The notes under the pieces are model-generated. The model saw only the letters and a list, made by a program, of their open reading frames with translations. It made no database searches and had not been told where the DNA came from. A DNA stretch of 64,000 nucleotides. It comes from an uncultured archaeon (lineage in GTDB: Archaea > Aenigmatarchaeota > Aenigmatarchaeia > Aenigmatarchaeales > Aenigmatarchaeaceae). Position 1 is the stretch's first letter. Each line of letters opens with the position of its first letter. The stretch spans positions 31,234-95,233 of the forward strand of contig CAZSPB010000002.1 of the NCBI GenBank assembly GCA_964608725.1, written 5' to 3'. This document shows positions 26,883-59,905 of the stretch, in pieces. The position numbers were made by a program, and so were the translations under genes.

Positions 26883-27920
26883 ATGAAAAGGTTAACACAA
26901 AAAAGGAAGGATGAACAAATTAAGATCATTTTAGAGAAAGATGTTGAAGAAGGTAGAAATGGTTTGGATGATGTTATTCTTATTCATAATGCATTGCCTG
27001 AATTAAATTTTGAAGAAATAGATACTAAAGTTAAATTTTTAGGAAAAGAGTTAGAGATGCCTTTGTTAATTTCTGGAATGACTGGTGGGACTGAAGAAGG
27101 ATATAAAGTAAATAAAGCTCTTGCAGAAATAGCAGAAGAAAAAGGAATTGGAATGGGCCTAGGCTCTCAAAGAGTTGCTTTAGAAAATCCTGAAACTTTG
27201 TCAACTTTTTATGTTAGAGATGTTGCCCCAAACATATTACTTCTTGGAAATATTAGTGCTCCAAGATTAAAAGAATATGAATTTAGGTTAATTGAAAAGT
27301 TAATAGAAGAAGTAAAAGCTGATGGAATAGCTATTCACCTTAATCCTGCCCATGATTTCTTTCAAAAAGACGTTGAAGTTGATTTCAATTGGAAAGGTTG
27401 TTTTGAAAAAATAAAAGAGTTTTGTGAATTTACAAAATATCCTGTTATAGTGAAAGAAGTTGGGTGTGGAATTAGTAAAGAAGTTGCATTAAAGTTGAAA
27501 AGTGCTGGAATTAAAGCTATAGATATTGCTGGATGGGGTGGTACTAATTGGGTTTTAGCAGAAAGTTATAGAAGTGGGAAAGAAGTAGGAAAATTTAGAT
27601 TTTGGGGAATTCCAACTTCTTGTGCAATAATAGAAGCTAAGAAAATTGGAATTGATATCATTGCTAGTGGTGGTATAAGAAGTGGTTTAGATATAGCAAA
27701 ATCAATTGCTTTAGGAGCAAAAGTTTGTGCTATAGCAGCTCCATTTTTAAGAATTTTAAAGAAAGAAGGAAGGGAAGGTGTTAGAAGATATATTGACAAA
27801 TTATTACTTGAGCTAAAAGCTACTATGCTTTTTACTGGTTCTAAAAATATAGAAGAGCTGAGAAAAGTTCCATTTGTCCTTACTGGTTTGACAAAAGAAT
27901 GGGCACAACAAAGAACTTAA
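26883..27920 (+). CDS. fni: Type 2 isopentenyl-diphosphate delta-isomerase
   Basis: RKDEQI, HNALPE, SGMTGG, GLGSQR, HLNP, VKEVGCG, GGTNW and SGGIRSG motifs. Confidence 0.96.
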   Translation: MKRLTQKRKDEQIKIILEKDVEEGRNGLDDVILIHNALPELNFEEIDTKVKFLGKELEMPLLISGMTGGTEEGYKVNKALAEIAEEKGIGMGLGSQRVALENPETLSTFYVRDVAPNILLLGNISAPRLKEYEFRLIEKLIEEVKADGIAIHLNPAHDFFQKDVEVDFNWKGCFEKIKEFCEFTKYPVIVKEVGCGISKEVALKLKSAGIKAIDIAGWGGTNWVLAESYRSGKEVGKFRFWGIPTSCAIIEAKKIGIDIIASGGIRSGLDIAKSIALGAKVCAIAAPFLRILKKEGREGVRRYIDKLLLELKATMLFTGSKNIEELRKVPFVLTGLTKEWAQQRT

Positions 27921-28306
27921 ATTTCATTAATGTAAACTTTTTCCCTTTCTATTTTTAAAATATCTCCGCTCTTTATTTTTTCAATATCAATTTTGTCAAC
28001 ACAAGGAATATTTGAAATTATAGAACCTACTGCAACAATAGTTTCACACTCTTGGTTTATTATAGCTAAAGGGGCTACTCCATTCTTTTTTAACCTATAA
28101 ATTACATAAGAACCTACAGTAGAACCTTTGCCTGTAGGAAAAACTAAAATTTTTCCTTTAATACTTTTTCCTTCTAATTCATGTTTTTTCTCTATTATTG
28201 TACCAGTTTTTGGATCAACCCCACCAAAAAATGAAATAGGTTGTGTTGTTACTAAAGCTTCACCTTTAACTTTTCCTTCACAAATTACCCTGCCTTTTAA
28301 AATCAT
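27917..28306 (-). CDS. Phosphomevalonate dehydratase small subunit (DUF126, AcnX type II small subunit)
   Basis: ISFFGGVDP.TG and GKGSTVGSYV motifs. ATGA overlap with the large subunit. Confidence 0.9.
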   Translation of the reverse strand: MILKGRVICEGKVKGEALVTTQPISFFGGVDPKTGTIIEKKHELEGKSIKGKILVFPTGKGSTVGSYVIYRLKKNGVAPLAIINQECETIVAVGSIISNIPCVDKIDIEKIKSGDILKIEREKVYINEI

Positions 28307-29481
28307 TTTGTCACCATTTTTACACATTCTCTTAAACTAGCAATTTTAGTTTTCATTTTACTTCTACAATAGTAACAAGCCTTTGCTGAATTAGTTAGCA
28401 GAGTCTTAAATTTATCTTTTAGAGGAGAAACTACCATACAAGTATCACAAATTATTTTTCCTCCAGCCTTTTCTATAATTTTAGTGTAGCCTAAATTATC
28501 GGAAATCTTTTTTATTTTCCTAGCAGTAGCAATCCAGAATTCAGCATCCTTTATTTTCTTACCTTTTAATAAAGAGGCAACTTCTTTTATCTCGTTTATA
28601 GAAGCATGAGGACAACCTATACAAACAAAGTCAAATTCTTCACAAACATCACTCATTTTCTCTTTTGCTTCTTTTAAATCCTTTTCATCCACTTCAACCT
28701 TTTCTTTTGGTAATTCAAATTTATTCCATTCTGGAGTTAATTTTTCTATGTGAAATAAAGGTTTTGAACCATAAGTAACAGTAGAAGCAGATAAAGATTT
28801 CAACTCTTCTAAAGAAGCATTTTTTATCCCTTTTATAAAAGCAACTTCATTTCTCGCTTTTTCACCAATTATATAGCCTAACGCTCCAAAATCTGAAATT
28901 TCTTTTAAATGAGTTTTAACTTTAACTAAGATAGTTGGTATTCTTTCTTCGTCTAAATGAAAACCATAAAGGGGTGTTCTTCCTGTTAAAGCTGCTGCTA
29001 AAGCTGAAGGCCCTCCTTCTCTGTTAGTTCTAGCACCTATTATTGAGTTAGCATATGTGACAGCAGAAGATTCTGACCATGCGATATGTTCTTTGTATTT
29101 TGGTAAGTTTCCTATCAAATATGGTACACAAGTACAAGTAACTTCTATCCCCATTTTTTCATAAGCTTCTATTATCCTTTTTTGTTTATCAACAAAATTT
29201 TTTGGGAAATTAAATTCTTTCCAATTTTTAAGGTCAACACCAGCTGGATTTAAAGTTGTCTTTACTTTAACCTTTCCATCTATAGCCATTTCTTTAAGAA
29301 ATTCTAGGCCTACATCTCCAATAGTTAAATAAGAAACTCCAGCAACTTGGACTGAACTTACTTTTATCAACTTTTCAGCATTGTATACTTTTGCTAGTGC
29401 TACTAAAATTTTCATTGCCTTTTGTGTTGCAAGGCCATATTCTCCATTAAGCATTTTTTCTTCTTCTTTTGTCAAATACAT
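28303..29481 (-). CDS. Phosphomevalonate dehydratase large subunit (DUF521, aconitase X)
   Basis: TTLNPAG, TCTCVPY, WSESSA, RTNREGGPSALAA, GCPHAS and DTCMVVSP motifs. Confidence 0.92.
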   Translation of the reverse strand: MYLTKEEEKMLNGEYGLATQKAMKILVALAKVYNAEKLIKVSSVQVAGVSYLTIGDVGLEFLKEMAIDGKVKVKTTLNPAGVDLKNWKEFNFPKNFVDKQKRIIEAYEKMGIEVTCTCVPYLIGNLPKYKEHIAWSESSAVTYANSIIGARTNREGGPSALAAALTGRTPLYGFHLDEERIPTILVKVKTHLKEISDFGALGYIIGEKARNEVAFIKGIKNASLEELKSLSASTVTYGSKPLFHIEKLTPEWNKFELPKEKVEVDEKDLKEAKEKMSDVCEEFDFVCIGCPHASINEIKEVASLLKGKKIKDAEFWIATARKIKKISDNLGYTKIIEKAGGKIICDTCMVVSPLKDKFKTLLTNSAKACYYCRSKMKTKIASLRECVKMVTK

Positions 29482-30781
29482 TTTTCACCCTTTCGTATTT
29501 CACTCTTTTAAAACTTTTATCTTTCTTTTCCCATGGAATAGTTGCATCAATTCCCATTTTACATGTTCTTGCTTTTTTACCTTCAGTTAAATCTGCTGAA
29601 GGATCTAAAGATGAACCCTTTTGATTTGGAAGAATAATCAGATCTTTATCAGCTTGGAATCTTGTAGCTATGGCCCACTCTACTTCCATAGGATCATAAA
29701 TGTTAACATCTTCATCCACAACAATGCAATGTTTCAATGAACTATGGCCTTTGAATGCAGCTCTTATTGCTCTTTTCCCATCATCTTCTCTTTTTTTATT
29801 TATTTGAACAATAGCATGTAGCCAACTACAACCTCCAAGAGTTAAGTAAACATCTTTACAATCACAAACTTTATTTACTTCATTAAAGATTGTTGGCTCT
29901 CTAGGCATTCCCATCAAAAGCTTATGTTCTCTACCGCCTGCTAACAAAGTTTGAAAAATTGGGTTTTTTCTATGAGTTATACATTTTATTTCTATCACTG
30001 GTTGTTCTCTAATTTTATCATAAGTTCCAGTTAAGTCTAAAAATGGGCCTTCTTGTGCTTTTTCTTTTATTATTCTTCCTTCAAGAACAAATTCACAATC
30101 CCTTGGAACTTCTATGTCAATTGTTTTACATTTAACTAACTCAACTTTATCAAGGGCGTTAGCTAAACTAAATTCATCAACACCTTTTGGTAAAGATGTT
30201 GCTGCAGCTAGGAGAACAGCAGTAGAGTTGCCTATGCATATAGCAATATCTAACTCACCTCCAGCTTTTTTCAAAGCAGTATCAGTTCCTCTCTCTTCAA
30301 CTATCCTAGCTACAAACCTTTTTTTATCTAATAACATCAGCCTATGAAAACATACATTCCTTCCCAACTCAGGATCTTTAACGACAGCAATACCAGATGT
30401 GATATATCTTCCTCCATCTTTTTTCATAAACTTCATAATAGGTAGTTTAGTCAGATCAACATTCTTTTCAACAACTTCTTGACATTCTCCTTTTTCAACT
30501 ATAGTTGGAGTTTTCAAATTGTTTATTGCAAAAACCATTTTCCTTAACAATTCCTCTTTTTTTATACCAAGGGCTTTTGCTACAAGCTCTCTTCTAGAAA
30601 CCAAACCACCTACTACAGGAATATTATAACCTTTAACATTTTCGAAAATTGTAGGTTTTTCATCAAGGGTGTATAAAATATTAGCTATTTCGTAAATTGG
30701 TGAAATTTCTTTTTTTATTCTTATCAATTCACCTTCTCTTTCTAGTTTTTCTAAAAAATCCCTAAAGTTCATTTTTTCCAC
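29447..30781 (-). CDS. UbiD family decarboxylase, probable trans-anhydromevalonate 5-phosphate decarboxylase
   Basis: DGGRYITSG, HRLM, EGPFLD, EHKLLMG, VDEDVNI and KMGIDAT motifs; operonic with the PMDh subunits. Confidence 0.88.
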   Translation of the reverse strand: MEKMNFRDFLEKLEREGELIRIKKEISPIYEIANILYTLDEKPTIFENVKGYNIPVVGGLVSRRELVAKALGIKKEELLRKMVFAINNLKTPTIVEKGECQEVVEKNVDLTKLPIMKFMKKDGGRYITSGIAVVKDPELGRNVCFHRLMLLDKKRFVARIVEERGTDTALKKAGGELDIAICIGNSTAVLLAAATSLPKGVDEFSLANALDKVELVKCKTIDIEVPRDCEFVLEGRIIKEKAQEGPFLDLTGTYDKIREQPVIEIKCITHRKNPIFQTLLAGGREHKLLMGMPREPTIFNEVNKVCDCKDVYLTLGGCSWLHAIVQINKKREDDGKRAIRAAFKGHSSLKHCIVVDEDVNIYDPMEVEWAIATRFQADKDLIILPNQKGSSLDPSADLTEGKKARTCKMGIDATIPWEKKDKSFKRVKYERVKNVFDKRRRKNA

Positions 30782-30888
30782 TTATACAATTTGTTTTTAA
30801 TGTTTAATAAATCAAGGATTTTTCAGCAAGTAGGCAAGGAGAGAGCAAAGTGTCATAACCCCCTGAAAACATTAAAAGACATTTTTTA

Positions 30889-31074
30889 TCATTTATCATA
30901 TTCGGATTTAATAAATTTTTCTATTCTTTTTATCAATTTTTCATCGTGAATTATGTTTACGCACTCTTTATCCTTAATTCCTAAATTTTCTATTGTTTCT
31001 CTTATTTTGGGAAGTATGTAATCAACTTCATCTTTAAATATTTTAACAATTATCATTGCTTTTTTAATTTTCAT
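30889..31074 (-). CDS. Hypothetical small protein
   Basis: 61 aa ORF only. Confidence 0.4.
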   Translation of the reverse strand: MKIKKAMIIVKIFKDEVDYILPKIRETIENLGIKDKECVNIIHDEKLIKRIEKFIKSEYDK

Positions 31075-31194
31075 CTTTTTTAATTTGTATTCAAGCTTTT
31101 TTGCTATCTTTTTACTCCTAAGAGGGGTGAAAAATCTTTATAAAATTTACCAAGGTAATACTAAGTCAAAAAGATTAAATTTAAATCACATCTT

Positions 31195-32097
31195 TTGTTT
31201 GTATTAAATATGGAAAGGTTCTTCTCTCGAATACTAAGAAAAAATAAAATGACTGCTTTGATTGAGTTAGGAAGACCATGGAATGCTATACTTGTAGTAT
31301 TGCTTTCTATACTAGGAGCGTCTTTAACCTTAGGCAATTTACCTAATTTATCTACAATTTTAATCTTGCTCTCGGTCATAACTCTTATTTATATTGGTAG
31401 CTCAGCAATTAATGATCTTTTTGACATGAGAGTTGACTCTATAAATATGCCTTTTAGACCTCTCGAAAGAGGTTCCTTAAGAGTGAAAGATGTTATATAC
31501 TTTTCACTATTTTCTTATAGCTTAGCTATTTTCGTTTCATATTTAATATCCTTTCATTATTTTCTTTCAATAATTCTAATGGCAATTTCAAGCATAATAT
31601 ATTCTCTGCCTCCATTCTCTCTGAAAGATAGAGGAATACTAGGCAATATAGATTTGGGATTTACTACAACTTTTACCACTCTTTATTCGGGTTCAGTCTT
31701 GATAACAAAAACTTTTTCTATTCCAGAAATAGTTATTATTTCTTCTATCTCTCTTACTGCATTTTTTACATTCTTTTCCATATTGAAAGATTTTAAAGAT
31801 ATGAAAGGTGATAAGATTCATCATAAGGAGACTGTGGTAATAAGATTCGGTTTGAAAAATGCCCTAGCTATGAACATCCTAGGTACATCAATTTTCTTAC
31901 CTCTCACAATTTATCTATTTTACCAATTTGTAACTCAAAGTTTATTATTCCTAATTTTTTCAGTTTTGTTGTTTATTTTCTTATTGTTAGAAGAAATCAA
32001 GTTATTTAAAAACCCAGTTGAAGAAGCAGGTGAAAAAATTTGGGGAGAAAGTAGGTTAATTTTTCTAATTTTTGTAGCAATTTTATTAATATTCTAA
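31195..32097 (+). CDS. UbiA family prenyltransferase (DGGGP synthase-like)
   Basis: GRPWN, NDLFDMRVDSINMPFRPLERG and KDFKDMKGD Asp-rich motifs; multiple TM helices. Confidence 0.85.
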   Translation: MFVLNMERFFSRILRKNKMTALIELGRPWNAILVVLLSILGASLTLGNLPNLSTILILLSVITLIYIGSSAINDLFDMRVDSINMPFRPLERGSLRVKDVIYFSLFSYSLAIFVSYLISFHYFLSIILMAISSIIYSLPPFSLKDRGILGNIDLGFTTTFTTLYSGSVLITKTFSIPEIVIISSISLTAFFTFFSILKDFKDMKGDKIHHKETVVIRFGLKNALAMNILGTSIFLPLTIYLFYQFVTQSLLFLIFSVLLFIFLLLEEIKLFKNPVEEAGEKIWGESRLIFLIFVAILLIF

Positions 32098-32160: not shown

Positions 32161-32748
32161 TTAAGTTAAAAGTTTAAATCTATATTTTCCTTCTTTAACT
32201 TTCCAACTCCATTCTTCTACGAGAGTATAAGTTATATCAAAAGATAAAAATGCAAAAAAGTAATAAAGTTCAAAAAAGCCTGAAATAACCATCAAAAACA
32301 TTACAACTTTTACTACACATCTGTAAAGGAAAAACTTCTCTAAAAAACCTTTAAACATACCCTTATCAGCCATATCATTACCTATTTCATCTAAGATAGC
32401 TCCTGAGACAAGAAATATAACAGGTATTATTTGTGTATCTATTGAAATAGTTACAGGTGAAAATATTACCCTCATTATGATTAAAAAAATACAAATTAAA
32501 GTTGCTGTAATAAATGCATTATTATCTATTTTTCTTGTAATTACAAGACCTAATAGGATTGACAAAAAAATGATAGAAGTAGGACCATCAGCTGCTATCA
32601 TCATCCCTCCTATCACTCCGCAAATTAAACCTATTACCAAGGCTTTTTTCTTTGGAAAAATAAATTCATCAAAAGCTTGATCAACATACTTTATCCCACC
32701 ACCCACAAAAATATACCCTAAAAAGAGTAAAATCTTATCTAATATCAT
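32161..32748 (-). CDS. Uncharacterised polytopic membrane protein with Asp-rich motifs
   Basis: GGGIKYVDQAFDE, RKIDN, LDEIGNDMAD and FDITY set among about five TM helices. Confidence 0.75.
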   Translation of the reverse strand: MILDKILLFLGYIFVGGGIKYVDQAFDEFIFPKKKALVIGLICGVIGGMMIAADGPTSIIFLSILLGLVITRKIDNNAFITATLICIFLIIMRVIFSPVTISIDTQIIPVIFLVSGAILDEIGNDMADKGMFKGFLEKFFLYRCVVKVVMFLMVISGFFELYYFFAFLSFDITYTLVEEWSWKVKEGKYRFKLLT

Positions 32749-32806
32749 ATTTTACTTTAGCCTACTTGGATATAAAAACTTATATTTACCCTGTGAATTT
32801 ATTAAT

Positions 32807-34431: not shown

Positions 34432-35658
34432 ATGGGAAAAAGGATTTTTGATGTTATAATCATAGGGGGTGGTATTTCTGGATTGTATTGTGCCTATCTT
34501 TTAAAGGTATCAAAAGTCTCAAAAAGCCTGATGATACTTGAAAAAGAAAATTACGTAGGAGGTAGAATAAAAACGTTAAAATATAAAAATAAACTTCTCG
34601 ATGTAGGAGCACAATATATTTCTGAGAATGTAATTAAACTACTCCAAAGAAAAAGATTCCCGATTAAATTTAAAATTATACGTGAGCCTTCAACAGTATT
34701 ATTTTTCGGAGATAAGAAAATTATTTGGAAAAATAATCTTAAAGTCTTATTAGATTTGCCTTTGTCTATAAAAGCTAAGATATTTTTATTACGTGATATT
34801 CAAAGATTAATGTTGCTTGGAAATAAATATGATATAGAAATAGAGAAATTTGTTAGTAGATCTACTATAAACTTATTAAGGCCCTTTGTGACTGGCATTA
34901 CTTCAGAAAAGATAGAAAATTTTTCGACAAGTTATATATCTTTTTTATTAAAAAATGTATATCAACGTGCTTATTATAGCCCAAGCAAATTCATCTTACA
35001 TCTTTGTAATTTTTTAAAAAAAGAAATAATAAAAAATGCCGAAGTAGTTAAAATAAAGGATGCTGGAGAATATTTTAACGTATTTTATAAAAATAGAAAA
35101 ATTCTTAAAAAAGTTAAGGCAAAAAAAATTATTTTTTCAGTTCCCCCTGATGAATTAATAAATAAATTTTCCGAACTATTAACAAAAAGAAAGATAAAAA
35201 GTTTAAAGGAAGTGAAATATTCATCAGGTATAGTAGTTTCTATTAAAATAAACAGAAAATTACCCTATTTTGCATATTTCTTCGATGAAAAGCCAGTATA
35301 TGTAATGACAAACTTTTCCGACAAAAAAATTGTTAATTTATTCATACCTGGATTTTTTTATAAGGATATGATAAATAAAGGAGATGAAAAAATAAAAAAA
35401 TGTATTATAACTATTTTGAAATCTCATAAATATTTGAGGTGTATTATGCCTGAAAATAGTATAAAGAAAATAGTTGGAATAACAAAATGGAAGAAGTATT
35501 TACCAATCTGGAAAGAGGGGTATGGAAAAATTATCAACAGTTTAAAGGAGAATATCAATGGTAGAATATTTTTTTGTGGAGATTATACTGATATGCCATC
35601 CATTGATGGTGCAATTAAAAGTTCCATGTGTGTATTTGACCAAATGATTAATGCTTAA
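34432..35658 (+). CDS. FAD-dependent oxidoreductase (amine oxidase / protoporphyrinogen oxidase / phytoene desaturase superfamily)
   Basis: IIGGGISGL, LEKENYVGGRIKT, DVGAQY and C-terminal FCGDY...IDGAIKS motifs. Confidence 0.8.
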   Translation: MGKRIFDVIIIGGGISGLYCAYLLKVSKVSKSLMILEKENYVGGRIKTLKYKNKLLDVGAQYISENVIKLLQRKRFPIKFKIIREPSTVLFFGDKKIIWKNNLKVLLDLPLSIKAKIFLLRDIQRLMLLGNKYDIEIEKFVSRSTINLLRPFVTGITSEKIENFSTSYISFLLKNVYQRAYYSPSKFILHLCNFLKKEIIKNAEVVKIKDAGEYFNVFYKNRKILKKVKAKKIIFSVPPDELINKFSELLTKRKIKSLKEVKYSSGIVVSIKINRKLPYFAYFFDEKPVYVMTNFSDKKIVNLFIPGFFYKDMINKGDEKIKKCIITILKSHKYLRCIMPENSIKKIVGITKWKKYLPIWKEGYGKIINSLKENINGRIFFCGDYTDMPSIDGAIKSSMCVFDQMINA

Positions 35659-35690
35659 TCAGAATAGCTTTTCTTCAAAAATTTTTTACT

Positions 35691-36884
35691 TTACCTAAAA
35701 ATTTGTGAAAAAAGAAACAAAATTTTTAGAGCGTTAAAAGAAGGAAAGATTGTTCTTAATGCCTTTAAAAAATCTTTTAAATTCGTTTCATTCGCTATTA
35801 AACTTAGGCTTTTAATAATAAAGTCAAAATCTTTATTATTCAGTTTTCTAAAGACTTTCCTATTCTTAATTGCACTCTTAAGATAGGGTATAACTTGTTG
35901 TATATAAAATTTTTCGAAAAGAGAAAGGTCTTCATCATTTTCTAATGCTTCATTAATTATACGAGCCCCTTTAAATGCTGAGAATATAGCATAGTTTAAT
36001 CCATAACCAAACAAAGGATCAATAAATAATCCTGCCTCCCCTACCAGAATTAAATTCCCTTTCGTAACATTATTGAGAATACCGTATTTCACCTTTCCAC
36101 CAAAATAATTTAAAATCTTTTTATCTTGAAGGAGCTTTTTGAACATAGGATTATCCCTTTTATTCTTAAAAAATAGTTCTTGAGAATTTTTATCTGTAAT
36201 TTCTTTATCAATAATTATTGTCAAAATACTTTGATTTTTAACTGAACCACAATAAATATAACCTCCTGGAGCAAATAAAGAATTGAAAAGTATTGTTGTT
36301 TTATCAAGTATTTTACCCTTAATTAATGCGCCAAATCCTTCAAATAAATGACTTTCTACCTCCTTTATTTTAGCTAGTTTTCTACATTGTGAAAAGGAAC
36401 CATCAGCACCCACAACAATAGATGGACTCAATTTTAATTTTCTACCTTCTTTCTTTATTGTTACTTCTCTTATTTTTTTATTTTTAAAAGTGAATTTTAT
36501 TAGTTTGGAGCCCTTAATAAAATTACATCCCTCATCCTTTGCCTTTTTCATAATTTGGCAATCTAATGAGTCTTTAGAAGGTCCTCTTTTAAAATAATAA
36601 TCATATACGTTAGATTTAAAAGTAAAGCTCTCGTTAAGAGAATTCCAATTTGAAATTTTGACCCTCTTAAAAGGCTTAACACAAAGCTTTCTTAAAATTC
36701 CGTCAATTTTTCCAAATGGTAATTGAGACTCAGTTATATCTATCCGTGGGTTAGTAAATCCTCCTATTTTTGAAACCTTATCAATTGTTATAATATCGTA
36801 TCCCATCTTAGAGAGTAATAGAGAGATAGTAGAACCTGAAGCACCAGCCCCCACAATTAAAACATCACATTTTAATTTTGGCAT
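35691..36884 (-). CDS. Geranylgeranyl reductase family FAD-dependent oxidoreductase
   Basis: DVLIVGAGASG, VVGADG, FAPGGYIY and VGEAG.FIDPLFGYGL motifs. Confidence 0.85.
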   Translation of the reverse strand: MPKLKCDVLIVGAGASGSTISLLLSKMGYDIITIDKVSKIGGFTNPRIDITESQLPFGKIDGILRKLCVKPFKRVKISNWNSLNESFTFKSNVYDYYFKRGPSKDSLDCQIMKKAKDEGCNFIKGSKLIKFTFKNKKIREVTIKKEGRKLKLSPSIVVGADGSFSQCRKLAKIKEVESHLFEGFGALIKGKILDKTTILFNSLFAPGGYIYCGSVKNQSILTIIIDKEITDKNSQELFFKNKRDNPMFKKLLQDKKILNYFGGKVKYGILNNVTKGNLILVGEAGLFIDPLFGYGLNYAIFSAFKGARIINEALENDEDLSLFEKFYIQQVIPYLKSAIKNRKVFRKLNNKDFDFIIKSLSLIANETNLKDFLKALRTIFPSFNALKILFLFSQIFR

Positions 36885-36918
36885 ATTAATTTTTAAAAAG
36901 CCTAAAATTTAATATATT

Positions 36919-37290
36919 ATGAAAGTTTTAAGATGCGATGTCTTAGTAGTTGGTGCAGGGCCTGCAGGCTCATCAGCTGCTAGAGTAGCCACTAATTTTA
37001 CTAAGAATATTTTATTAGTTGAGAAGAAAGGATATCCATACAAAGCAGGTTGTGGAGAAGCCTTAGTGCATTTTTATTAAAAAATTCCCAATCGAAATTT
37101 CCAATTCTCAACTAAAATGGGTAGTAAAGGGTTTTGTAAAATTGCTGTTATGAGTATTAAAAAGAACATTTCTTTAAACAAATATAATACATTTATCATG
37201 AAAAAGTTCAACTTTTTATCCATTTCCCAAAAAGTAGCAAATGCACAATTAAGATATTTAAACATAAGGGAAATAAAGCTTATCTTGTAG
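36919..37290 (+). pseudogene. Decayed geranylgeranyl reductase paralog, N-terminal part
   Basis: 36919-37080 reads MKVLRCDVLVVGAGPAGSSAARVA...GCGEAL. Homology to 38896-40047 continues in a shifted frame (FIKKFPIEISNSQLKWVVKGF vs LLPYLPIRIPRRQLLWKTRGI), then degrades. End approximate. Confidence 0.75.
36933..36985 (+). repeat. 53-bp segment identical to the reverse complement of 39987-40039
   Basis: ATGCGATGTCTTAGTAGTTGGTGCAGGGCCTGCAGGCTCATCAGCTGCTAGAG, compared base by base. Confidence 0.9.
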
Positions 37291-37402
37291 CACTTGGACT
37301 TTTTACTGAAATTTTTAAAGCCGTGAAAATTGATATGTTACTTCGACTTGATAAATACGAATTAATAAAAAGATTACTTTAATGAACATTACTATCAGAA
37401 TT

Positions 37403-37531
37403 TTAAATCCTTAAAGACGATCTTTTATTCAATTTAAGCATATTTTTTATTTCAGAGTAACTACGCTTTTTAATTTTTTTAACTTCCTCATAAGAAAATA
37501 AATTTGAGACCCTGATTATTCTTTGCTTCAT
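37403..37531 (-). pseudogene. Probable remnant of a GGR C-terminus
   Basis: VSNLFSYEEVKKIKKRSYSEIKNML aligns with VSNLFSSKKIKIMKKDDYKEVKKCL at the end of 38896-40047. Confidence 0.55.
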
Positions 37532-37715
37532 TTTTCTCTCACTGATGATATAAGACAGATAAGTAATTATCAATTTTATCAATCTAACGTTTTAAAAAAT
37601 GCATTTTTTACTAGTGAGATTATCGACCACTTTAAATTTCGGTATAATTACTACATATGAAGTTTATATTACTGGAAAAAATTTCAAATCACTAACATAT
37701 TGGCTGAAAGAATAG

Positions 37716-38917
37716 TTAGTAGTATAAATGAAAGGGCACTCTTTTACCAAGCAGTTTTTTGGAAGGACTAACTATTTTAACTAATTCATCTCTGGTAACT
37801 TCGTTCCTTAAGAGTCTAAATAGTATTCTCATCTTATTTTTCTTTTTTAGAAAATTAAGTAAGACAATAAATTTATCCCAAAACTCATCACTTTCCACTT
37901 CTTCTGTAGTTATCATTTTGAATTGTTGTTTGACCATTTCTTCACATTTTTTTTGATAAATTGAAAGGTAACTTTCAGAAATATTATTTGCTTTAATAGC
38001 TTGGTAAGCAATGTTTCCTGCTAATTTTCCAAAATGAAGTGCGTATCTGATACCTTCCCCAAATAAAGGTGATGCTTGAGATGCTGCGTCGCCAACTACG
38101 AGTAAATTTTTAGAAAATATTTTTTTAATTAATCCACAAAGTGGAGTAAGTCCCATATGCTCTTCAATAGGTTGAGCTTTTTCTAAATAAGGAGAAATGC
38201 ATTCGCTGTTTAAAAATGCTTCTAAATAGTCAGAAATATTTAAAATATCTTTTGTTTTTTTCCAACTTTAATAGAAGTAGCAATACCTATTCTCGCTGCC
38301 TCTTTTCCTAAAGGGAAAAACCAACCGTAACCTTCGGGAATTATTTCTTTCTCTCCTACAAAGATTTTAAAGGTGGTTGGAGATTTGACTTTAACATTGT
38401 AATATTCTCTTTCAATACCAATTCCCAATTCATATTTTTTAGGAAATAAATTTTCTTTCCGAGCTAAAACAGCAGAGGGGCCAGATGCATCTATAAAAAT
38501 TTTAGCTGTGATCATTTTTTTATCTTTTAGATATACTTTATTTTTTTCTAACTTACTATCTACTACTTTTGCATTCAGTATGATTTTAGAACCAAATCGA
38601 ATACTTTGAAGAGCTAACTGCTTTAAAAATTTATGGAAATTGACTGTACATGCTATTCTCCTCTTGAAATTAATGCTAGCTTTCATTTTAGAGTGAAGAG
38701 AGGCAATTTCAAAATTTGTATACCACTGGACAACGCTTCTTTTTAATTTCCATTCTTTTATCACATCACTCCAGGTGAGTGCAGAAGTTTTAACGGGATA
38801 TCCTATTTCTTTATTTTTTTCTACAATAATAGTATTTAATCCGTGTTTAGCCGTAATAATACTACAAGCTAAGCCTGCAGGCCCTGCACCAACTACTAAG
38901 ACATCGCATTTAAGCAT
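37716..38917 (-). pseudogene. Geranylgeranyl reductase family gene split by a -1 frameshift at an A7 run (about 400 aa if fused)
   Basis: N-half 38240-38917 (GAGPAG, DASG, GYGWFFP) and C-half (VGDAASQASPLFGEGI) are joined by an open -1 frame from the T run at 38255-38261: GKK|TKDILNISDYLEAFL...PIEEHMGLTPLCG. Confidence 0.85.
38872..38917 (-). repeat. 46-bp direct repeat, identical to 40002-40047
   Basis: AGCCTGCAGGCCCTGCACCAACTACTAAGACATCGCATTTAAGCAT in both copies; encodes MLKCDVLVVGAGPAG. Confidence 0.92.
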
Positions 38918-40047
38918 TTCTTTACCTCTTTATAATCATCTTTTTTCATTATTTTAATTTTTTTAGAAGAAAATAAATTTGAAACAAGAGCAAGAAGTAG
39001 TAGATATTTCTTTTTACTTCTCAAAGAAAATAGGTCATATATCACTTTTGTAATTTTTTTTGATTCCTTAAAAAACTTTCCAAATTTTTTATTAATTTCA
39101 TTTTCATATGAATTTAAACTTATACCTTTTTTTAAATGCAAGGCTGCTATCCTTCCGCAAATATCTCCACATATCATTGCTGGTAAAATTCCCTCATCAT
39201 AAGGTTTGAGATTCTGAGCTGCAGCATCCCCCACAACTAGTATGTTACCATACACTATTTTTGTGAGGAATGAATTTATTAAAGATTTTCCACTTCTTTC
39301 AATAATTTTTTTTCCATTCTTCAGTTGTTTCTTAACGAGATCTAGTTCCAAAAATTTCTCAAAACAAACCTTTAAATTTTTTCTTTTTACACTTCCTACC
39401 CCCACATTGGCAACATTCTTTGATTTAGGAAAGATATAAGCATAACCTCCATCAGAGTAATCACCAATATAAATCTGTTCCATGTAAGGATTTTCTAATT
39501 TCAGATTATGCATTTCCCAACTGTAAATTCTGGCAATATCATATTTTTTTGGTTTATATAAGTTTAATAATTTTAGAGTTGTTGATTCAGCTCCATCTGC
39601 AGCAATTAGAACTCTCGGCCTAATTTCAATAATTTTTTTTCTTCTTTTAATAAAAGCTTTTTTCACATGAAAACTTTCATGTTTTAGCTTTATTAGTTCT
39701 GCATTCGTGATTAGTTTTACACCCTTTTTAATTGCTTCCTTAGCAAGCCAGAAATCAAATTTTTTTCTATCTATGCTAAAAGTTTCCCAACCTTTTCCAA
39801 TTTTTTCTATTTTTATTCCTTCAGAATAAAATCTTATTCCTCTTGTTTTCCAAAGCAACTGTCTTCGAGGTATTCTTATAGGTAAGTAAGGTAATAAATA
39901 AGAACTTATAGCTTCTCCACACGCAACTTTCCCTGGTCTCCTTTTCTTTTCTATTAAAATTACATTAGCTCCATTTAAAGCAGCCGCTCTAGCAGCTGAT
40001 GAGCCTGCAGGCCCTGCACCAACTACTAAGACATCGCATTTAAGCAT
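38896..40047 (-). CDS. Geranylgeranyl reductase family FAD-dependent oxidoreductase
   Basis: DVLVVGAGPAG, ACGEAI, IDRKKFD, IAADGAES, GGYAYIFPK and VGDAAA...EGILPAMICG motifs. Confidence 0.9.
   Translation of the reverse strand: MLKCDVLVVGAGPAGSSAARAAALNGANVILIEKKRRPGKVACGEAISSYLLPYLPIRIPRRQLLWKTRGIRFYSEGIKIEKIGKGWETFSIDRKKFDFWLAKEAIKKGVKLITNAELIKLKHESFHVKKAFIKRRKKIIEIRPRVLIAADGAESTTLKLLNLYKPKKYDIARIYSWEMHNLKLENPYMEQIYIGDYSDGGYAYIFPKSKNVANVGVGSVKRKNLKVCFEKFLELDLVKKQLKNGKKIIERSGKSLINSFLTKIVYGNILVVGDAAAQNLKPYDEGILPAMICGDICGRIAALHLKKGISLNSYENEINKKFGKFFKESKKITKVIYDLFSLRSKKKYLLLLALVSNLFSSKKIKIMKKDDYKEVKKCLNAMS
39987..40047 (-). repeat. Shared identical 5' block of three GGR paralogs
   Basis: 40002-40047 matches 38872-38917 directly; 39987-40039 matches 36933-36985 in inverted orientation. 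Confidence 0.9.
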
Positions 40048-40077: not shown

Positions 40078-40767
40078 TTACTTTTTCGGGCTCTTTAAAC
40101 TTATTCCATTCTCTGTTATTTCTAGCACAACACTTCTTCTAAAGTGTTCAGTCCTCCTCATTTTTCTCACAACTAAAGTTAAGGGATTTGGAGAAAGATA
40201 ATCATAACGTAGTAAAATTACTCCATCAACAACAAACTCTTCAACACCAAATTTTGCTAAAGTTTCATATTTTTCGGGTAATTCAGAAGTTATCACACTT
40301 GTTGCTCCCGATTCTTTTAAACCAGATAATAATTTAAATAACTGTTTCCTTAATTCAAAAGATTTTTCATAATATAAACCAAGAAGTGTAGTTGAATCAA
40401 CAGCAACTCTTTGAATTCCATTTTCTTTTATTTTATCTATTAAAGGAGAAGTGATATCAACTACTTGAAAAGGGTCATAATATTCCAAAAACAACTTTTT
40501 CTCATCAATATACTTTTTCAAATCCCAGCCAAATCTTTTAACATCATTTACAATATCTTCTGTTTTCTGTTCGAGAGTAATAAACATACATTTTTCTCCT
40601 CTTTTCAATCCTTCCATTAAAAATTGAACACAAAATATAGTTTTTCCTGTTCCAGTAGCACCCGAAACTAAAACAGTAGAACCTTTTACAAAACCACCTT
40701 CTATTAATTCATCTAAACCTGGGATTCCAGTAGGAACTCTTTCGAAATCGAACCTTTCTTCTGGCAT
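40078..40767 (-). CDS. Single-domain KaiC-like / RAD55 family ATPase
   Basis: RVPTGIPGLDELIEGG, GATGTGKT, VDS, VDGVILL and VRKMR motifs. Confidence 0.92.
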   Translation of the reverse strand: MPEERFDFERVPTGIPGLDELIEGGFVKGSTVLVSGATGTGKTIFCVQFLMEGLKRGEKCMFITLEQKTEDIVNDVKRFGWDLKKYIDEKKLFLEYYDPFQVVDITSPLIDKIKENGIQRVAVDSTTLLGLYYEKSFELRKQLFKLLSGLKESGATSVITSELPEKYETLAKFGVEEFVVDGVILLRYDYLSPNPLTLVVRKMRRTEHFRRSVVLEITENGISLKSPKK

Positions 40768-48498: not shown

Positions 48499-49482
48499 TT
48501 ACATCAAAGTTTCTGAATTCAAGAGAAAGATTGTAGATGCTCTTATATCGCTCACAGCAAGCACAAACTGAGTTACTCTGTTTAAACCAATTCCACAACC
48601 TGAATGAAGGTTCATCTTAGTATTCTTAACACACTCAAGATACCATTCAAAATCTTTTATGCTACCACCCTTTTTAATCAGATTCTTTAACATTTCTGAA
48701 TTCTTTAATCTCTCTAAAAGTTTTTCATACCTGTACTCTCTTTCTGCTGCACCAACTGCTTCCCCACTTATTGGCAGTATTAAATCTGTGCTATTCACTA
48801 TTTCTGGTCTCTCATCATTTTCTCTCATGTTAAAGAACTTTATAGCCTTTGGAAAATGGGTTATGAATAAGGGCCTGTTACCAAGCATTTTCACTAATAA
48901 CTTCTCGTGTTCACTTTTCAAATCATCTCCCCATTTTACTCCATGCTCTGATAACATTTCTACTGCCTTGTCATATGTTATCTTTTTAAATGGTTTTTTC
49001 ACATCCCTAAGTCTTTCTATCTCTAAACCATATAATTCCTTTTGCCTAAGAACTTCTTTTATCATTTTGCAAATGATGTTTTCTATATGTATTAGAAGCT
49101 CTTTGAAATTCCCTTCAAACTCCATTTCAATTAAAGGGAATTCAGTTAGATGCCTGTTATCGGATTCTGGCTCTGCTCTGAAACTAGGGCCAATACACCA
49201 TACTTTTTTGAGTGTAGGGATCATTGCCTCTAGGTACAATTGCTGTGTTTGACTTAGATAAGCTTTCTGACCAAAATAGTTAAGAGCAAACAGAGTGTCT
49301 ATATTTTCACATGCTCCAGTGGCTTTTGTTATATGTGGTGCATTAATTTCTATGAAGCCATTTTCCACGAAATAATCTCTTGCACCTTTTAATAAAGCTG
49401 CTTCAACTCTTGCAATAGTTTCCAACTCTTTTGTTTCAATAAACTTATGCCTATTTTTAGTTTCCTTCAATTTTTCCCACAT
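48499..49482 (-). CDS. AsnRS-like protein lacking the anticodon-binding domain, probable archaeal asparagine synthetase (AS-AR type)
   Basis: 327 aa catalytic core only: YLSQTQQLYLE, FRAEP..DNRHLTEF, GEAVGAAERE and HSGCGIGLNR. No OB fold. Confidence 0.8.
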   Translation of the reverse strand: MWEKLKETKNRHKFIETKELETIARVEAALLKGARDYFVENGFIEINAPHITKATGACENIDTLFALNYFGQKAYLSQTQQLYLEAMIPTLKKVWCIGPSFRAEPESDNRHLTEFPLIEMEFEGNFKELLIHIENIICKMIKEVLRQKELYGLEIERLRDVKKPFKKITYDKAVEMLSEHGVKWGDDLKSEHEKLLVKMLGNRPLFITHFPKAIKFFNMRENDERPEIVNSTDLILPISGEAVGAAEREYRYEKLLERLKNSEMLKNLIKKGGSIKDFEWYLECVKNTKMNLHSGCGIGLNRVTQFVLAVSDIRASTIFLLNSETLM

Positions 49483-57082: not shown

Positions 57083-57180
57083 GCCCAGGTAGCTCAATGG
57101 AAGAGCGGCTGATTAGTGTCGAAGCTGTTAACCATTGAGTAGAAACCAGCAGGTTGCAGGTTCGAATCCTGCCCTGGGCG
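57083..57180 (+). tRNA. tRNA-Asn(GTT) with two introns: 30/31 (57112-57123) and 37/38 (57131-57144)
   Basis: Acceptor GCCCAGG/CCTGGGC with G73; D arm GCTC/GAGC; T arm GCAGG-TTCGAAT-CCTGC. Removing both inserts gives GCTGG-CTGTTAA-CCAGC. Confidence 0.9.
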
Positions 57181-58362
57181 CTATTCTGCAATAGTATGTT
57201 GATAACTTAACAATTCTGGAGGTAATTCCATTCCTCTTTCTGTTAACCTTTCACAAATAGAAGCAGCTATAGGGCTTTGAGCAAAGGCCGAATAAACATA
57301 AAACCATCTAGGTGTTCCATCTCTCTTTTTCTCTTTGAAAAGAATAGAATAATCAGATGCTCTTTCTAGGGGTGAATTTTCAGTTCCAATCATAGAATAA
57401 ACTCTCACACCAAGATTCCTATAATCTTCTGCCCATTTAACTATTGAAGATCTTTCTTCTTTTGTCTCTCCAGGATATACTATTTTTCCTCCTGAAAATG
57501 AAGTGAATATTGCAACATCTTTTGCCCTTGGCCTTGGTGTGTTTGCTCCTCCTATCATATACACTTCATCACCAAGGAAATGCTTGATATGAGCTAACCT
57601 TATAGCAAGCATTTTAGAAACTTCACCTGCTACTATTCTTCCTGCACAAAATACATCAGCCCTACTTTCTATATCATTTATTAATGAAGAATACATATCT
57701 GAAGTAACAAATTCATCAACTACACTTCCTATTTTTGGAAGTTCTTCCTCCATTATATCAAAAAATCTTTGAGGTTCTGAATTTTCACAGAGCATTTGAC
57801 TAATACCTTGTAAGGTAACAAGACTTCCAAGCTCATAAATATCTTGCATTATTCCAACATCCCTATATTTTTCTAACTTTTCATTTTCACCTCTTCCCTT
57901 TAACTCAAGAACAACCCCATGTCTTTTTCCAATTTTTCCAATAGGAGAATCAGGCTTAGATGTTATAACATCTATAGTAAACTTATCTGTTTTTCTTTTC
58001 TCAATATAATTTTCTATTTGCCTAGTTATGCTTTTAGGCCCTTCTGTTTTGCCACTACCACTGTTAACTATCACACTTATTTTCTTATACTTTCTTTCTA
58101 ATTTTGGAGCTGCTTCATAAACAGTAGCACCTGGGAATCCTATATCTTCTTGAGTTATAATAGTCATATCGTTCCTATTCTTTGCAAGTTCACTTAAAGC
58201 TATTTTTAAAGCACATAATGACCTTCCAGCACCAACTGCAACCCAACAATCAGAAGAAGCTACGTCATAATAAAATTCTTCTAATTGTAAAGGATCAATA
58301 TCAAATATGTTATCTTTTATCTTATTAATATAACCTACTTCATTGCTTATTTTTTCTCTCAT
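57181..58362 (-). CDS. Tandem SIS-domain protein, 6-phospho-3-hexuloisomerase (HxlB/PHI)-like
   Basis: Two repeats: AVGAGRS..NSGSGKT..TSKPDSP and CAGR..KMLAIRLAH..VYMIG..TP..TSFSGG..ENSPL. Confidence 0.7.
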   Translation of the reverse strand: MREKISNEVGYINKIKDNIFDIDPLQLEEFYYDVASSDCWVAVGAGRSLCALKIALSELAKNRNDMTIITQEDIGFPGATVYEAAPKLERKYKKISVIVNSGSGKTEGPKSITRQIENYIEKRKTDKFTIDVITSKPDSPIGKIGKRHGVVLELKGRGENEKLEKYRDVGIMQDIYELGSLVTLQGISQMLCENSEPQRFFDIMEEELPKIGSVVDEFVTSDMYSSLINDIESRADVFCAGRIVAGEVSKMLAIRLAHIKHFLGDEVYMIGGANTPRPRAKDVAIFTSFSGGKIVYPGETKEERSSIVKWAEDYRNLGVRVYSMIGTENSPLERASDYSILFKEKKRDGTPRWFYVYSAFAQSPIAASICERLTERGMELPPELLSYQHTIAE

Positions 58363-58600: not shown

Positions 58601-59905
58601 ATGAAAAAGAAAAATAAGGATAGTGGTTTTATGGATTTTTTACATGTTAAAGATGTGCTTTCAAAAGAAAAAGAAGGAAAAGAAGTTAAGTTAAGAGGGT
58701 GGGTTTACAGGAAAAGAGAACAGAAAGATATAGTGTTTATAATTTTAAGAGATTCTACAGGGATAATTCAATTAACATGCAAAGATGAAGTGTTTAAGAT
58801 AGCTCAAAAAGCTACTATAGAATCTTCTATTCAAGTAAAAGGAATAGTTAAAGAAGATAAGAGAGCTCCAGGAGGTTTTGAAGTAGAAGTAAAAGAGCTT
58901 GAAATAGTTGGGTTAGCTGAAAGATTTCCAATAACTAGAGACAAAAGCGAAGAGTTTTTAAGAGATGTCAGGCACTTATGGATAAGATCTCAAAAAATGA
59001 CAAAAATTTTTAAGATAAGAAGCGAAGTTTTTTATGCTATTCATGAATTCTTTAGAAAAAGAGGATTCATAGAAGTTCAATCACCAAGTATAATAACAGC
59101 TGCTTGTGAAGGAGGAGCAACTTTATTCGAGATAAAATATTTTGATAAGAAAGCTTATTTAACACAAAGTTGGCAATTGTATGCTGAAGCTATGATTTAC
59201 TCTTTAGAAAAGATTTATACTATAGCTCCAAGTTTTAGGGCAGAAAAAAGTAAAACTTTTAGACATTTGGCCGAATACTGGCATGCTGAAGCAGAAGCAG
59301 CTTGGATGGATATGAAAAGTTGTATGAAACTTGCTGAAGATTTAGTATGTTTCATATGTGAAAAAATAGTTGAAAAGTGTAAAGAAGAATTGGAATTTTT
59401 TGGAAGAAAACCAAAAGATTTGTTAATAAAGCCTCCTTTTGAGAGAAAAAGCTATAGTGAAGCTATAGATATCCTGAAGAAAAAAGGTTTTAAAATAAAG
59501 TGGGGAGAAGACCTTGGAGCTGATGAAGAAAAAGCTTTAACTAAAGGTTATAAAAAACCTTTTTTTATTTACGGCTACCCTGTTAAATGTAAAGCTTTTT
59601 ATCATATGCCAGACCCAAAAGATCCAAAAATTACAAAATCTTTTGACTTACTAGCTCCAAGAGTTGGGGAAATAATAGGTGGTGGACAAAGAATTCATGA
59701 TAAAGCTCAATTAATCAAAAAAATAAAAGATTTTGGTTTAGATCCTAAAGATTATGAATGGTATATTGATTTAAGAAAGTATGGTAGTGTTCCTCATTCT
59801 GGGTTTGGTTTGGGTATAGAAAGACTAATAATGTGGATTATTGGCCTTCAGCATATAATGGATGCTATACCCTTTCCTAGAACAATAAGAAGGTATTATC
59901 CTTAA
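58601..59905 (+). CDS. asnS: Asparagine--tRNA ligase (probable start ATG 58631)
   Basis: OB fold LRDSTG, LTQSWQLY.E, FRAEKS.T.RHL.EYW, GEIIGGGQR and GSVPHSGFGLGIER motifs. Confidence 0.9.
   Translation: MKKKNKDSGFMDFLHVKDVLSKEKEGKEVKLRGWVYRKREQKDIVFIILRDSTGIIQLTCKDEVFKIAQKATIESSIQVKGIVKEDKRAPGGFEVEVKELEIVGLAERFPITRDKSEEFLRDVRHLWIRSQKMTKIFKIRSEVFYAIHEFFRKRGFIEVQSPSIITAACEGGATLFEIKYFDKKAYLTQSWQLYAEAMIYSLEKIYTIAPSFRAEKSKTFRHLAEYWHAEAEAAWMDMKSCMKLAEDLVCFICEKIVEKCKEELEFFGRKPKDLLIKPPFERKSYSEAIDILKKKGFKIKWGEDLGADEEKALTKGYKKPFFIYGYPVKCKAFYHMPDPKDPKITKSFDLLAPRVGEIIGGGQRIHDKAQLIKKIKDFGLDPKDYEWYIDLRKYGSVPHSGFGLGIERLIMWIIGLQHIMDAIPFPRTIRRYYP

Follow-up and report, generated by a model that had tools for sequence, protein, structure and literature searches.

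Short identical patches at the FAD-binding 5' ends of geranylgeranyl reductase paralogs in an Aenigmatarchaeota genome, probably left by gene conversion

We analyzed a 64,000-nt stretch of DNA, hereafter the window, from the chromosome of an uncultured Candidatus Aenigmatarchaeota (DPANN) that was recovered from a hydrothermal-vent metagenome (positions 31,234 to 95,233 of contig CAZSPB010000002.1). The parent sequence is a 242.6-kb MEGAHIT k141 contig assembled from short reads, and the GC content is ~30% across the window. Its open reading frames (ORFs) encode ribosomal proteins, tRNA synthetases, FtsZ, TFB, DNA ligase, and the like, and the window is therefore part of the core chromosome. 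It contains a cluster of geranylgeranyl reductase (GGR) paralogs, whose proteins have their closest homologs in Candidatus Aenigmatarchaeota metagenome-assembled genomes, and three of these paralogs, here called C, B, and P, begin with the same short block of sequence. These blocks, which we think probably arose by short-patch ectopic gene conversion, are the subject of this study. The block copies and the genes that carry them are listed below.

36933..36985, plus strand: block copy 1, 53 nt at the 5' end of pseudogene P, encoding (R)CDVLVVGAGPAGSSAAR and 100% complementary to 39987-40039
38872..38917, minus strand: block copy 2, 46 nt at the start of gene B (ATG CTT AAA plus the 38-nt core), 100% identical to 40002-40047
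39987..40047, minus strand: block copy 3, the opening 61 nt of gene C and the hub copy
38896..40047, minus strand: gene C, an intact GGR gene of 383 aa, directly downstream of a KaiC-like gene
37716..38917, minus strand: gene B, a GGR paralog present as a 225-aa and a 146-aa ORF with a single frameshift
36919..37385 (end approximate), plus strand: pseudogene P, traced by tblastn alignments to C and to the protein P0003

At the protein level, the blocks correspond to (M)LKCDVLVVGAGPAG(SSAAR), the FAD-binding start of the clustered paralogs. A first-pass annotation, made from the letters of the sequence, had reported two perfectly identical pairs here, and our repeat search reproduced each of them at 100% identity: a direct pair of 46 nt (38872-38917 and 40002-40047) and an inverted pair of 53 nt (36933-36985 and the reverse complement of 39987-40039), the arms of the latter being 3,001 nt apart. 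A third pair (36933-36970 and 38872-38909) is inverted, 38 nt long, and also 100% identical, and a core of 38 nt is common to all three block copies. Beyond this core, the copy in C shares another 8 nt upstream with B and another 15 nt downstream with P, giving C a tract of 46 nt with B (40002-40047) and one of 53 nt with P (39987-40039), while the tract common to B and P measures only 38 nt. Copy 2 also holds the final 22 nt and the stop codon of gene C, in another frame. These block pairs are the only exact repeats of at least 30 nt in the window, and a search with a 36-nt core pattern that tolerated up to three mismatches found the same three sites in the window and none in 100 shuffles.

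The identity extends through the wobble positions and stops abruptly, as had been noted at first pass. C and B are 100% identical from +1 to +46 and 33-44% identical thereafter, with 40% identity upstream, and C and P are 100% identical over 53 nt and then drop to 54% and 32%. When identical peptides are assumed and codon usage is taken from 38 window ORFs, the probability that the same codons were chosen by chance is 3.5e-7 for C and P (17 codons) and 1e-5 for C and B. The shared codons include several rare ones, namely GTC (5% of window usage), GGG (9%), GGC (9%), and TGC (16%).

To place these values in context, C was compared with three of its orthologs in an alignment that starts from the Cys codon. 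Over block nucleotides 1-52, C is 100% identical to P and 81% identical to B, the value for B rising to 100% over the 37-nt core counted from the Cys codon; identity with the orthologs is 69-79%. Over the next 80 nt, identity is 55% with P, 44% with B, and 69-81% with the orthologs. Paralogs are therefore closer than orthologs inside the tract and more distant than orthologs outside it, and such a reversal within a few nucleotides is a classical sign of a converted patch. Identity at synonymous sites is likewise above what codon usage would predict, as is expected of gene conversion. The tract shared by C and B ends at ...GGC T, where B-type orthologs natively read KCDVLVVGAGPAG-L (alignment A2), and the tract shared by C and P ends at ...AGA G, where the sequence of C-type orthologs is ...GSSAAR-AAALNG (alignment A1). 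In both cases, the tract stops where the peptides cease to be homologous.

The genes behind the blocks are in different states of preservation. The remaining features of the cluster that bear on this are the following.

40078..40767, minus strand: KaiC-like RecA-superfamily ATPase gene, 229 aa, 30 nt upstream of C (PF06745, 206 bits)
38255..38261, minus strand: A7 homopolymer in gene B, where the reading frame of B is lost and which A8 would restore
37403..37600, minus strand: D3', the 3'-terminal relic of a further C-type GGR (...VSNLFSYEEVKKIKKRSYSEIKNMLKLNKRSSLRI, then a stop), downstream of B
35691..36884, minus strand: gene A, 397 aa, a fourth and more distant FAD-dependent GGR-like paralog (TIGR02032, 81.6 bits)

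Gene C matches TIGR02032 with 174.1 bits, above the cut-off of 158.8, and the GGR_cat family PF22578 with 44.3 bits (cut-off 27). The motifs looked for in the family are a conserved Cys following the Rossmann fold, RxxFD, YxWxFP, and LxGD, and C by eye has ACGEA, IDRKKFD, GGYAYIFP, and VVGDAA. Its protein is 52-66% identical to orthologs of ~408 aa, compared with which it is ~28 C-terminal codons short; its stop lies 22 nt inside the block of B, and there is no spacer between the two genes. Gene B, when read through with one A restored, gives a protein of 400 aa that aligns end to end with its orthologs at 39-49% identity, scoring 147.2 bits against TIGR02032 (under the 158.8 cut-off) and 32.4 bits against PF22578 (cut-off 27). 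It belongs to a subfamily of conserved GGR paralogs of ~395-401 aa in which the Cys motif is replaced by YPVK(T/S)(S/A)(A/G)xT(W/F). The motif of this distinct subfamily can also be written YPVKTSA(L/F)TW. B has KTSA where the Cys motif would be expected, and YGWFFP and VVGDAA were also found in it by eye. A contig in the Logan assembly of the source reads that covers 36956-38901 equals the window, the A7 run of B included. This run could reflect recent inactivation, a slippage-prone site of phase variation, or a frame that is rescued by transcriptional slippage.

Pseudogene P is open over codons 1-53, after which there are a TAA codon, an internal deletion that removes residues ~65-298, a frameshift, and further stops. 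What remains downstream matches residues ~299-380 of C-type GGRs, and the TIGR02032 match of the fragment covers residues 2-45 only (40.5 bits). The remnant could also be read as GGR residues 1-121, but we rejected this, as residues 1 to ~60 joined to ~299-380 give the better alignment. The first-pass annotation had counted one pseudogene among the three block-bearing genes; P is indeed a pseudogene, but two of the three carriers are disrupted, as B is frameshifted too. It had also made no mention of the 3' truncation of C, of the fourth paralog A, or of the 3' relic D3'. This relic is 40% identical to residues 331-380 of P0003 and 73% identical to the 3' end of C at the nucleotide level. We considered whether D3' might be the missing 3' end of C and rejected this, as it overlaps residues 332-379 of C, at only 38% identity.

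Gene A, which is below the TIGR02032 cut-off, points away from P across a 34-nt spacer and is without the Cys motif; its ortholog in one of the related loci described below (L006) is 47% identical. The GxGxxG dinucleotide-binding motif reads GAGPAG in C, B, and P, and GAGASG in A. At its 5' motif, gene A is 67-71% identical to the block, so that it is not homogenized and can be used as an internal control: as this paralog has the same motif yet reaches 67-71%, constraint on the motif alone does not give identity. Elsewhere the paralogs have little in common, in agreement with the low downstream protein similarity first noted, with protein identities of ~30% for C and B, ~22% for C and A, and ~39% for C and P, the identical start included.

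One could suppose that the identity is maintained by selection on the nucleotides themselves, with the first 40-50 nt acting as an RNA or DNA signal such as an initiation structure of leaderless mRNA or the target of a regulator or a small RNA. Three ORFs open with the block, it contains rare codons, and its GC content is 50-55% in a genome of 30% GC. However, two of the three carriers are pseudogenes and leave nothing to regulate, the orthologs of C differ from it at 21-31% of block positions and paralog A at ~30%, and the Gly, Ala, and Pro codons of the motif account for the high GC content. A lack of conservation of the block in related species with working genes would speak against such a signal, and this is already largely what is seen. 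An Rfam scan of the window found no family besides three tRNAs, and none over the block region. We give this explanation almost no credence. Several other ideas about the block were tried and dropped. GC-biased conversion does not fit, as GC at third codon positions is low (4/17 codons) and the high overall value comes from the Gly, Ala, and Pro codons. A hairpin or palindrome, GCAGG-G-CCTGC, is present in the block, but it follows from the Ala-Gly-Pro-Ala codons and is not kept in relatives. An origin of the block in a mobile element was abandoned after a search of the 38-nt core against 2.9 million viral contigs gave zero exact matches. A scan for bacterial-type promoters and terminators returned counts at the level of shuffled sequence, and this type of scan is uninformative for an archaeon.

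The block repeats are real in the reads. We examined them in the Logan k=31 contigs of the source run, the contigs of a second run being without this locus. In this independent assembly, 99% of the k-mers of the region are present with no base differences, lesions included, and the contigs are interrupted precisely at the edges of the blocks (35600-36962, 36956-38901, 38888-40016, and 40018 onward). Two sub-block unitigs, of 38 nt (40010-40047) and 45 nt (39987-40031), have depths of 24.8x and 23.1x, respectively, and the four unique flank segments have depths of 11.6-13.6x. Sub-blocks at 23-25x against flanks at ~12x indicate two genomic copies of each within one genome, and the equal depth of the four unique segments speaks against a chimeric contig built from several populations. 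When perfect repeats longer than k recombine, the set of k-mers stays the same, so these k=31 contigs are blind to linkage and to rare recombinants.

These data also bear on the possibility of an assembly artefact, in which the contig would be a chimera joined at a conserved GGR k-mer of different loci or strains, or a collapsed consensus. Grounds for such a suspicion are the short-read origin of the MEGAHIT k141 contig and the ambiguity of the Logan k=31 graph at the blocks. Against it, the unique segments all lie at 11.6-13.6x with the sub-blocks at exactly double, the independent assembly reproduces every base including the lesions, and the outer flanks (the KaiC side and the A/FIST side) are syntenic neighbors in relatives. 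MEGAHIT by default steps through intermediate k values of 59-99; blocks of 46-53 nt are shorter than this and coverage there is adequate, which also counts against an artefact. We therefore hold it to be very improbable.

For comparison with related species, we used the loci L002, L003, and L006; two additional contigs, L004 and L005, belong to the L003 type. In the relatives, the genes are arranged as a KaiC-like ATPase gene, an A-like flavoprotein gene, a FIST gene, a 121-aa gene, and a 185-aa gene (the last three on the minus strand), and then a C-type GGR gene. In the window, the order is KaiC, C, B, P (inverted), A, an amine-oxidase-like gene, FIST, and a 120-aa gene, with the 185-aa homolog inverted. 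This homolog (32161-32748) lies on the strand opposite to the adjacent 120-aa and FIST genes, while in L002, L003, and L006 all of them are co-oriented and overlapping; its reversal places an inversion breakpoint at ~32750-32806. Judged by gene order, the locus of this genome has been rearranged relative to its relatives. We abandoned the attempt to trace a stepwise path from an ancestral order (KaiC, A, FIST, 121, 185, C), as no path of one or two inversions was found and the relatives are at most 66% identical. The adjacency of a KaiC-like gene and a GGR gene is kept in all relatives examined, and L003 has two KaiC-like copies in tandem.

The gene behind KaiC starts with MLKCDVLVVG here and in L002, L003, and L006, and the bodies that follow this KaiC-linked start are A2-type in L002 and L003, A-type in L006, and C-type in this genome. 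Two residues and the position of the gene thus hint, weakly, that GGR bodies have been exchanged behind the KaiC-linked start over evolution. The 5' ends of the paralogs were also compared within the relatives. In L002, the closest relative, 13/15 codons are identical against 6.7 expected (P ~9e-4), and in L003 the result is not significant (P = 0.11). From these sequences, recurrent homogenization in this lineage seems plausible. A scan of a genome collection for close relatives returned distant GGRs only (39-52% identity) with no syntenic pair, and these were used as the between-genome codon baseline. Other archaeal paralog pairs have 5-8/12 identical codons, and between-locus pairs with the same peptide average 0.34-0.42. 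We had considered concerted evolution of GGR 5' ends across Archaea and dropped it, as a metagenome scan contributed few loci that have both paralogs and the archaeal loci other than L002, with 5-8/12, are only modestly above the between-locus mean.

The comparison brought up some further GGR loci that deserve mention in their own right. In the Altiarchaeales locus L016 (163-260 and 1597 onward; also in L047), a 5' GGR fragment (MIECDVLVVGAGPAGSGAARACARVGFNLFI, then a stop) lies 1.4 kb upstream of an intact GGR, with which it shares the same initial ~24 residues and only 5/12 identical core codons. The near-identical metagenome contigs L060 (at 1143) and L061 (at 354) are distinguished by a homopolymer indel near the start of a GGR paralog (...LSAALTLVKKENL... 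versus ...LSAALTFGEKRKF... and a stop) and represent the intact and the frameshifted form of one GGR gene in different samples. In L003 (9251-11632), the gene downstream of the C-type GGR encodes an intein-bearing radical-SAM protein (Intein_splicing and LAGLIDADG matches), and it is followed by a tyrosine integrase gene and small ORFs that include a MazE-like gene, likely an integrated element beside the GGR locus.

The first-pass annotation had proposed that the repeats allow a shufflon-like swap of catalytic bodies behind different promoters. In this scheme, the 53-nt pair would reversibly invert a 3-kb segment and the 46-nt pair would excise one, making the locus an invertible or deletable cassette in which GGR bodies are switched from the KaiC-side start to the start divergent from A and back, as in phase variation or a shufflon. 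The arrangement itself invites this idea, with perfect inverted repeats 3,001 nt apart at two gene starts, and three different bodies are found behind the MLKCDVLVVG start across the relatives and here. However, the evidence from this genome speaks against it. A Pfam scan of window ORFs of at least 120 aa, minus four out-of-frame ORFs nested in annotated genes, found housekeeping families only and no recombinase, integrase, or transposase domain, and tblastn of a relative's tyrosine integrase against the window gave zero matches, both in line with the earlier statement that no recombinase is visible in the window. Inversion would join the KaiC-side start to the dead body of P, with its stop, internal deletion, and frameshift, and B is frameshifted as well, so that two functional products are not available. 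C and B occur on three public contigs and have the same neighbors on all of them. In a collection of ~15 billion proteins, C, B1, P, and A are each the single member of their 90%-identity cluster, so that C has no variant there with a different N-terminus. The repeats, moreover, encode a universally conserved motif and not a recombinase site. The proposal of a switch was accordingly not upheld, and we regard it as highly unlikely, although rare homologous inversion or deletion could take place at the repeats. A related idea is that the FAD-motif start acts as a recombination handle through which GGR bodies are exchanged behind the KaiC-linked site independently of a recombinase, on evolutionary time and perhaps also within populations, where homologous inversion or deletion would use the perfect 46-53-nt repeats. 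We think this improbable, but if it were true, a small-genome archaeon could vary its expressed isoprenoid reductase without a recombinase.

The junction between C and B gives some indication of how one of the copies may have come about, and for this one more feature is needed.

37432..37441, minus strand: ATGCTTAAAT in D3', codons N-MLK-L, at the position homologous to the C/B junction

The 10-mer ATGCTTAAAT occurs at three sites in the window, namely in D3' (37432-37441), at the C/B junction, where it opens B (38908-38917), and at the start of C (40038-40047), compared with a mean of 1.0 expected. The alignment between D3' and the 3' end of C (73%) continues straight across the C/B junction, D3' reading ...GAA ATA AAA AAT ATG CTT AAA TTG... 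(EIKNMLKL) and the 3' end of C reading ...GAG GTA AAG AA-ATG CTT AAA TGC.... This alignment indicates that C-type genes natively hold ATGCTTAAAT (codons MLK) ~30 codons ahead of their stop. The upstream edge of identity of the copy in B lies exactly at the ATG. A deletion or a templated repair, anchored on the ATGCTTAAAT microhomology on one side and on homology of the motif on the other, would remove the last ~28 codons of C together with the spacer between C and B and leave the block abutting the truncated C. Such an event would explain both the 46-nt exact identity and the sharp upstream edge, and we infer that the junction was formed in this way.

Taken further, the same observations could mean that all copies are junction scars of a duplicative rearrangement, in which template switching or microhomology-mediated repair, during the duplication, inversion, or insertion of cluster pieces, copied the start of C into new joints. 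The C/B joint without a spacer, the truncation of C, and the 10-nt microhomology are all compatible with this, and so are the internally deleted copy and the 3' relic in the cluster and the rearrangement of the locus relative to relatives. On the other hand, identity ends on both sides of every copy, with no flanking DNA co-duplicated, and B and P each come with a complete 5' context of their own, KCDVLVVGAGPAGL being the native start of B-type proteins. Because of these contexts, the replacement of an existing homologous patch is simpler than the creation of new joints. We consider scars of this kind unlikely as the general explanation; for the copy in B, they overlap with the explanation that we prefer.

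This preferred explanation, short-patch ectopic gene conversion between GGR paralogs, is in our view probable. It agrees with the original suggestion of recent gene conversion or recombination of the paralog 5' ends, which is borne out by the identity at wobble positions, the mosaic discordance, and the sharp tract ends. Non-reciprocal homologous recombination would have acted on the sole stretch that the paralogs share, the 5' coding region of the Rossmann FAD motif (MLK-CDVLVVGAGPAG-SSAAR). The event with P would have left a tract of 53 nt that stops together with the shared peptide ...SSAAR, and the event with B a 46-nt tract from the ATG to ...GAGPAG, after which B-type proteins natively continue with L. 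Because the tract of C with each partner exceeds the tract of B with P, at least two events, with C as a partner in both, would seem to be required, and for the ATGCTTAA part the transfer probably ran from C to B. A reciprocal crossover alone leaves reciprocal hybrids and not identical copies. Gene conversion, by copying or by mismatch correction, is therefore needed for the identity seen here, and the mechanism would be a non-reciprocal one. The patches would then be by-products of recombination in a rearranging and partly decaying paralog cluster and not parts of a dedicated switch.

Several points weigh against this interpretation. Before conversion, the patch would have given homologous recombination only a poor substrate, ~50 nt long and roughly 70-80% identical, so the model needs either recurrent, self-sustaining homogenization or recombination that tolerates short homology. 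Recurrence is in evidence in one relative only (L002), and other archaeal paralog pairs have no more than 5-8/12 identical codons. One genome cannot prove the direction or the number of events, with the nearest relative at 66% protein identity, and linkage across the blocks rests on the MEGAHIT contig.

Partial homogenization of neighboring archaeal paralogs has been described before. In the mtrA-1/mtrA-2 genes of methanogens, conversion is limited to part of the genes (Wang et al., PMC4632066), and long-lasting concerted evolution has been surveyed across prokaryotes (PMC6053082). As in mtrA-1/mtrA-2, the GGR paralogs are homogenized over part of their length and diverged over the remainder, and in the converted part, paralogs within the genome are closer than orthologs between genomes. 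In contrast, the conversion in mtrA-1/mtrA-2 covers a whole domain in two functional genes and has lasted for very long times, while the GGR patches are 38-53 nt long in three copies, two of them disrupted, and the evidence for their persistence is limited to one relative.

Two kinds of switching system also resemble the locus. Shufflons and invertons work by site-specific inversion, as in Rci/sfx of IncI plasmids, bacterial invertible promoters, and intragenic invertons. The GGR cluster is like them in having inverted repeats at the 5' parts of genes, where inversion would exchange bodies behind fixed starts. It is unlike them in that no recombinase was found in the scanned window ORFs, the arms are 53 nt that code for an enzyme motif, one product is dead, and one orientation is seen in assemblies. 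In antigenic variation of the pilE/pilS type, conserved blocks flank variable segments that are moved into an expressed gene. Disrupted or promoterless copies beside an expressed copy, short shared blocks, and non-reciprocal transfer are points of likeness, but in the GGR cluster the conserved block alone would have been copied, with no variable segment exchanged.

Outside the cluster, the window has some other features of interest. Adjoining the GGR genes at 26883-32097 is an isoprenoid and lipid gene neighborhood, with genes for an FMN-dependent dehydrogenase (possibly a type-2 IPP isomerase), the small and large subunits of aconitase-X (AcnX), a UbiD-family protein, and a UbiA prenyltransferase. 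The combination of AcnX and UbiD resembles the archaeal modified mevalonate pathway. As many DPANN are without lipid synthesis, the presence of this pathway in a DPANN genome would be notable. Elsewhere in the window, a tRNA-Phe(GAA) gene at 57083-57181 is 99 nt long with its anticodon at position 39, probably owing to an intron or an extra insertion. There are also two class-II tRNA-synthetase homologs of the Asp/Asn/Lys type (48499-49482 and 58601-59905), of which one, with 434 aa, is full length and includes an OB anticodon-binding domain, and the other, with 327 aa, has the catalytic core only and is possibly an AsnA-like or other paralog.

Archaeal genomes have several GGR-family paralogs (arCOG00570), in which the GxGxxG start is highly conserved and the catalytic motifs are less so, and the substrate of most of these paralogs is unknown (Rao and Driessen 2024, PMC10821996). 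In a term search, the words gene conversion, tandem, adjacent, duplication, and DPANN were absent from this review, beyond which the present locus adds a decaying GGR cluster of four to five copies in a DPANN genome.

The process that we propose is of a known kind and involves no new mechanism; what this locus offers is a motif-sized instance, with pseudogenes, in a DPANN genome. A universally conserved cofactor motif would here be the sole patch for recombination between paralogs that are otherwise unalignable (22-39% protein identity). Identical patches of this size can mislead the phylogenies of paralogs and the design of primers and probes. They also break k-mer assemblies in a predictable way and flag rearrangement-prone loci in metagenome-assembled genomes. 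To our knowledge, the recombination biology and lipid metabolism of DPANN are poorly known, and the cluster would be a case in which active recombination and gene decay, the latter seen in a poly-A frameshift, an internal deletion, and a 3' relic, occur together in a lipid-related gene cluster of this group.

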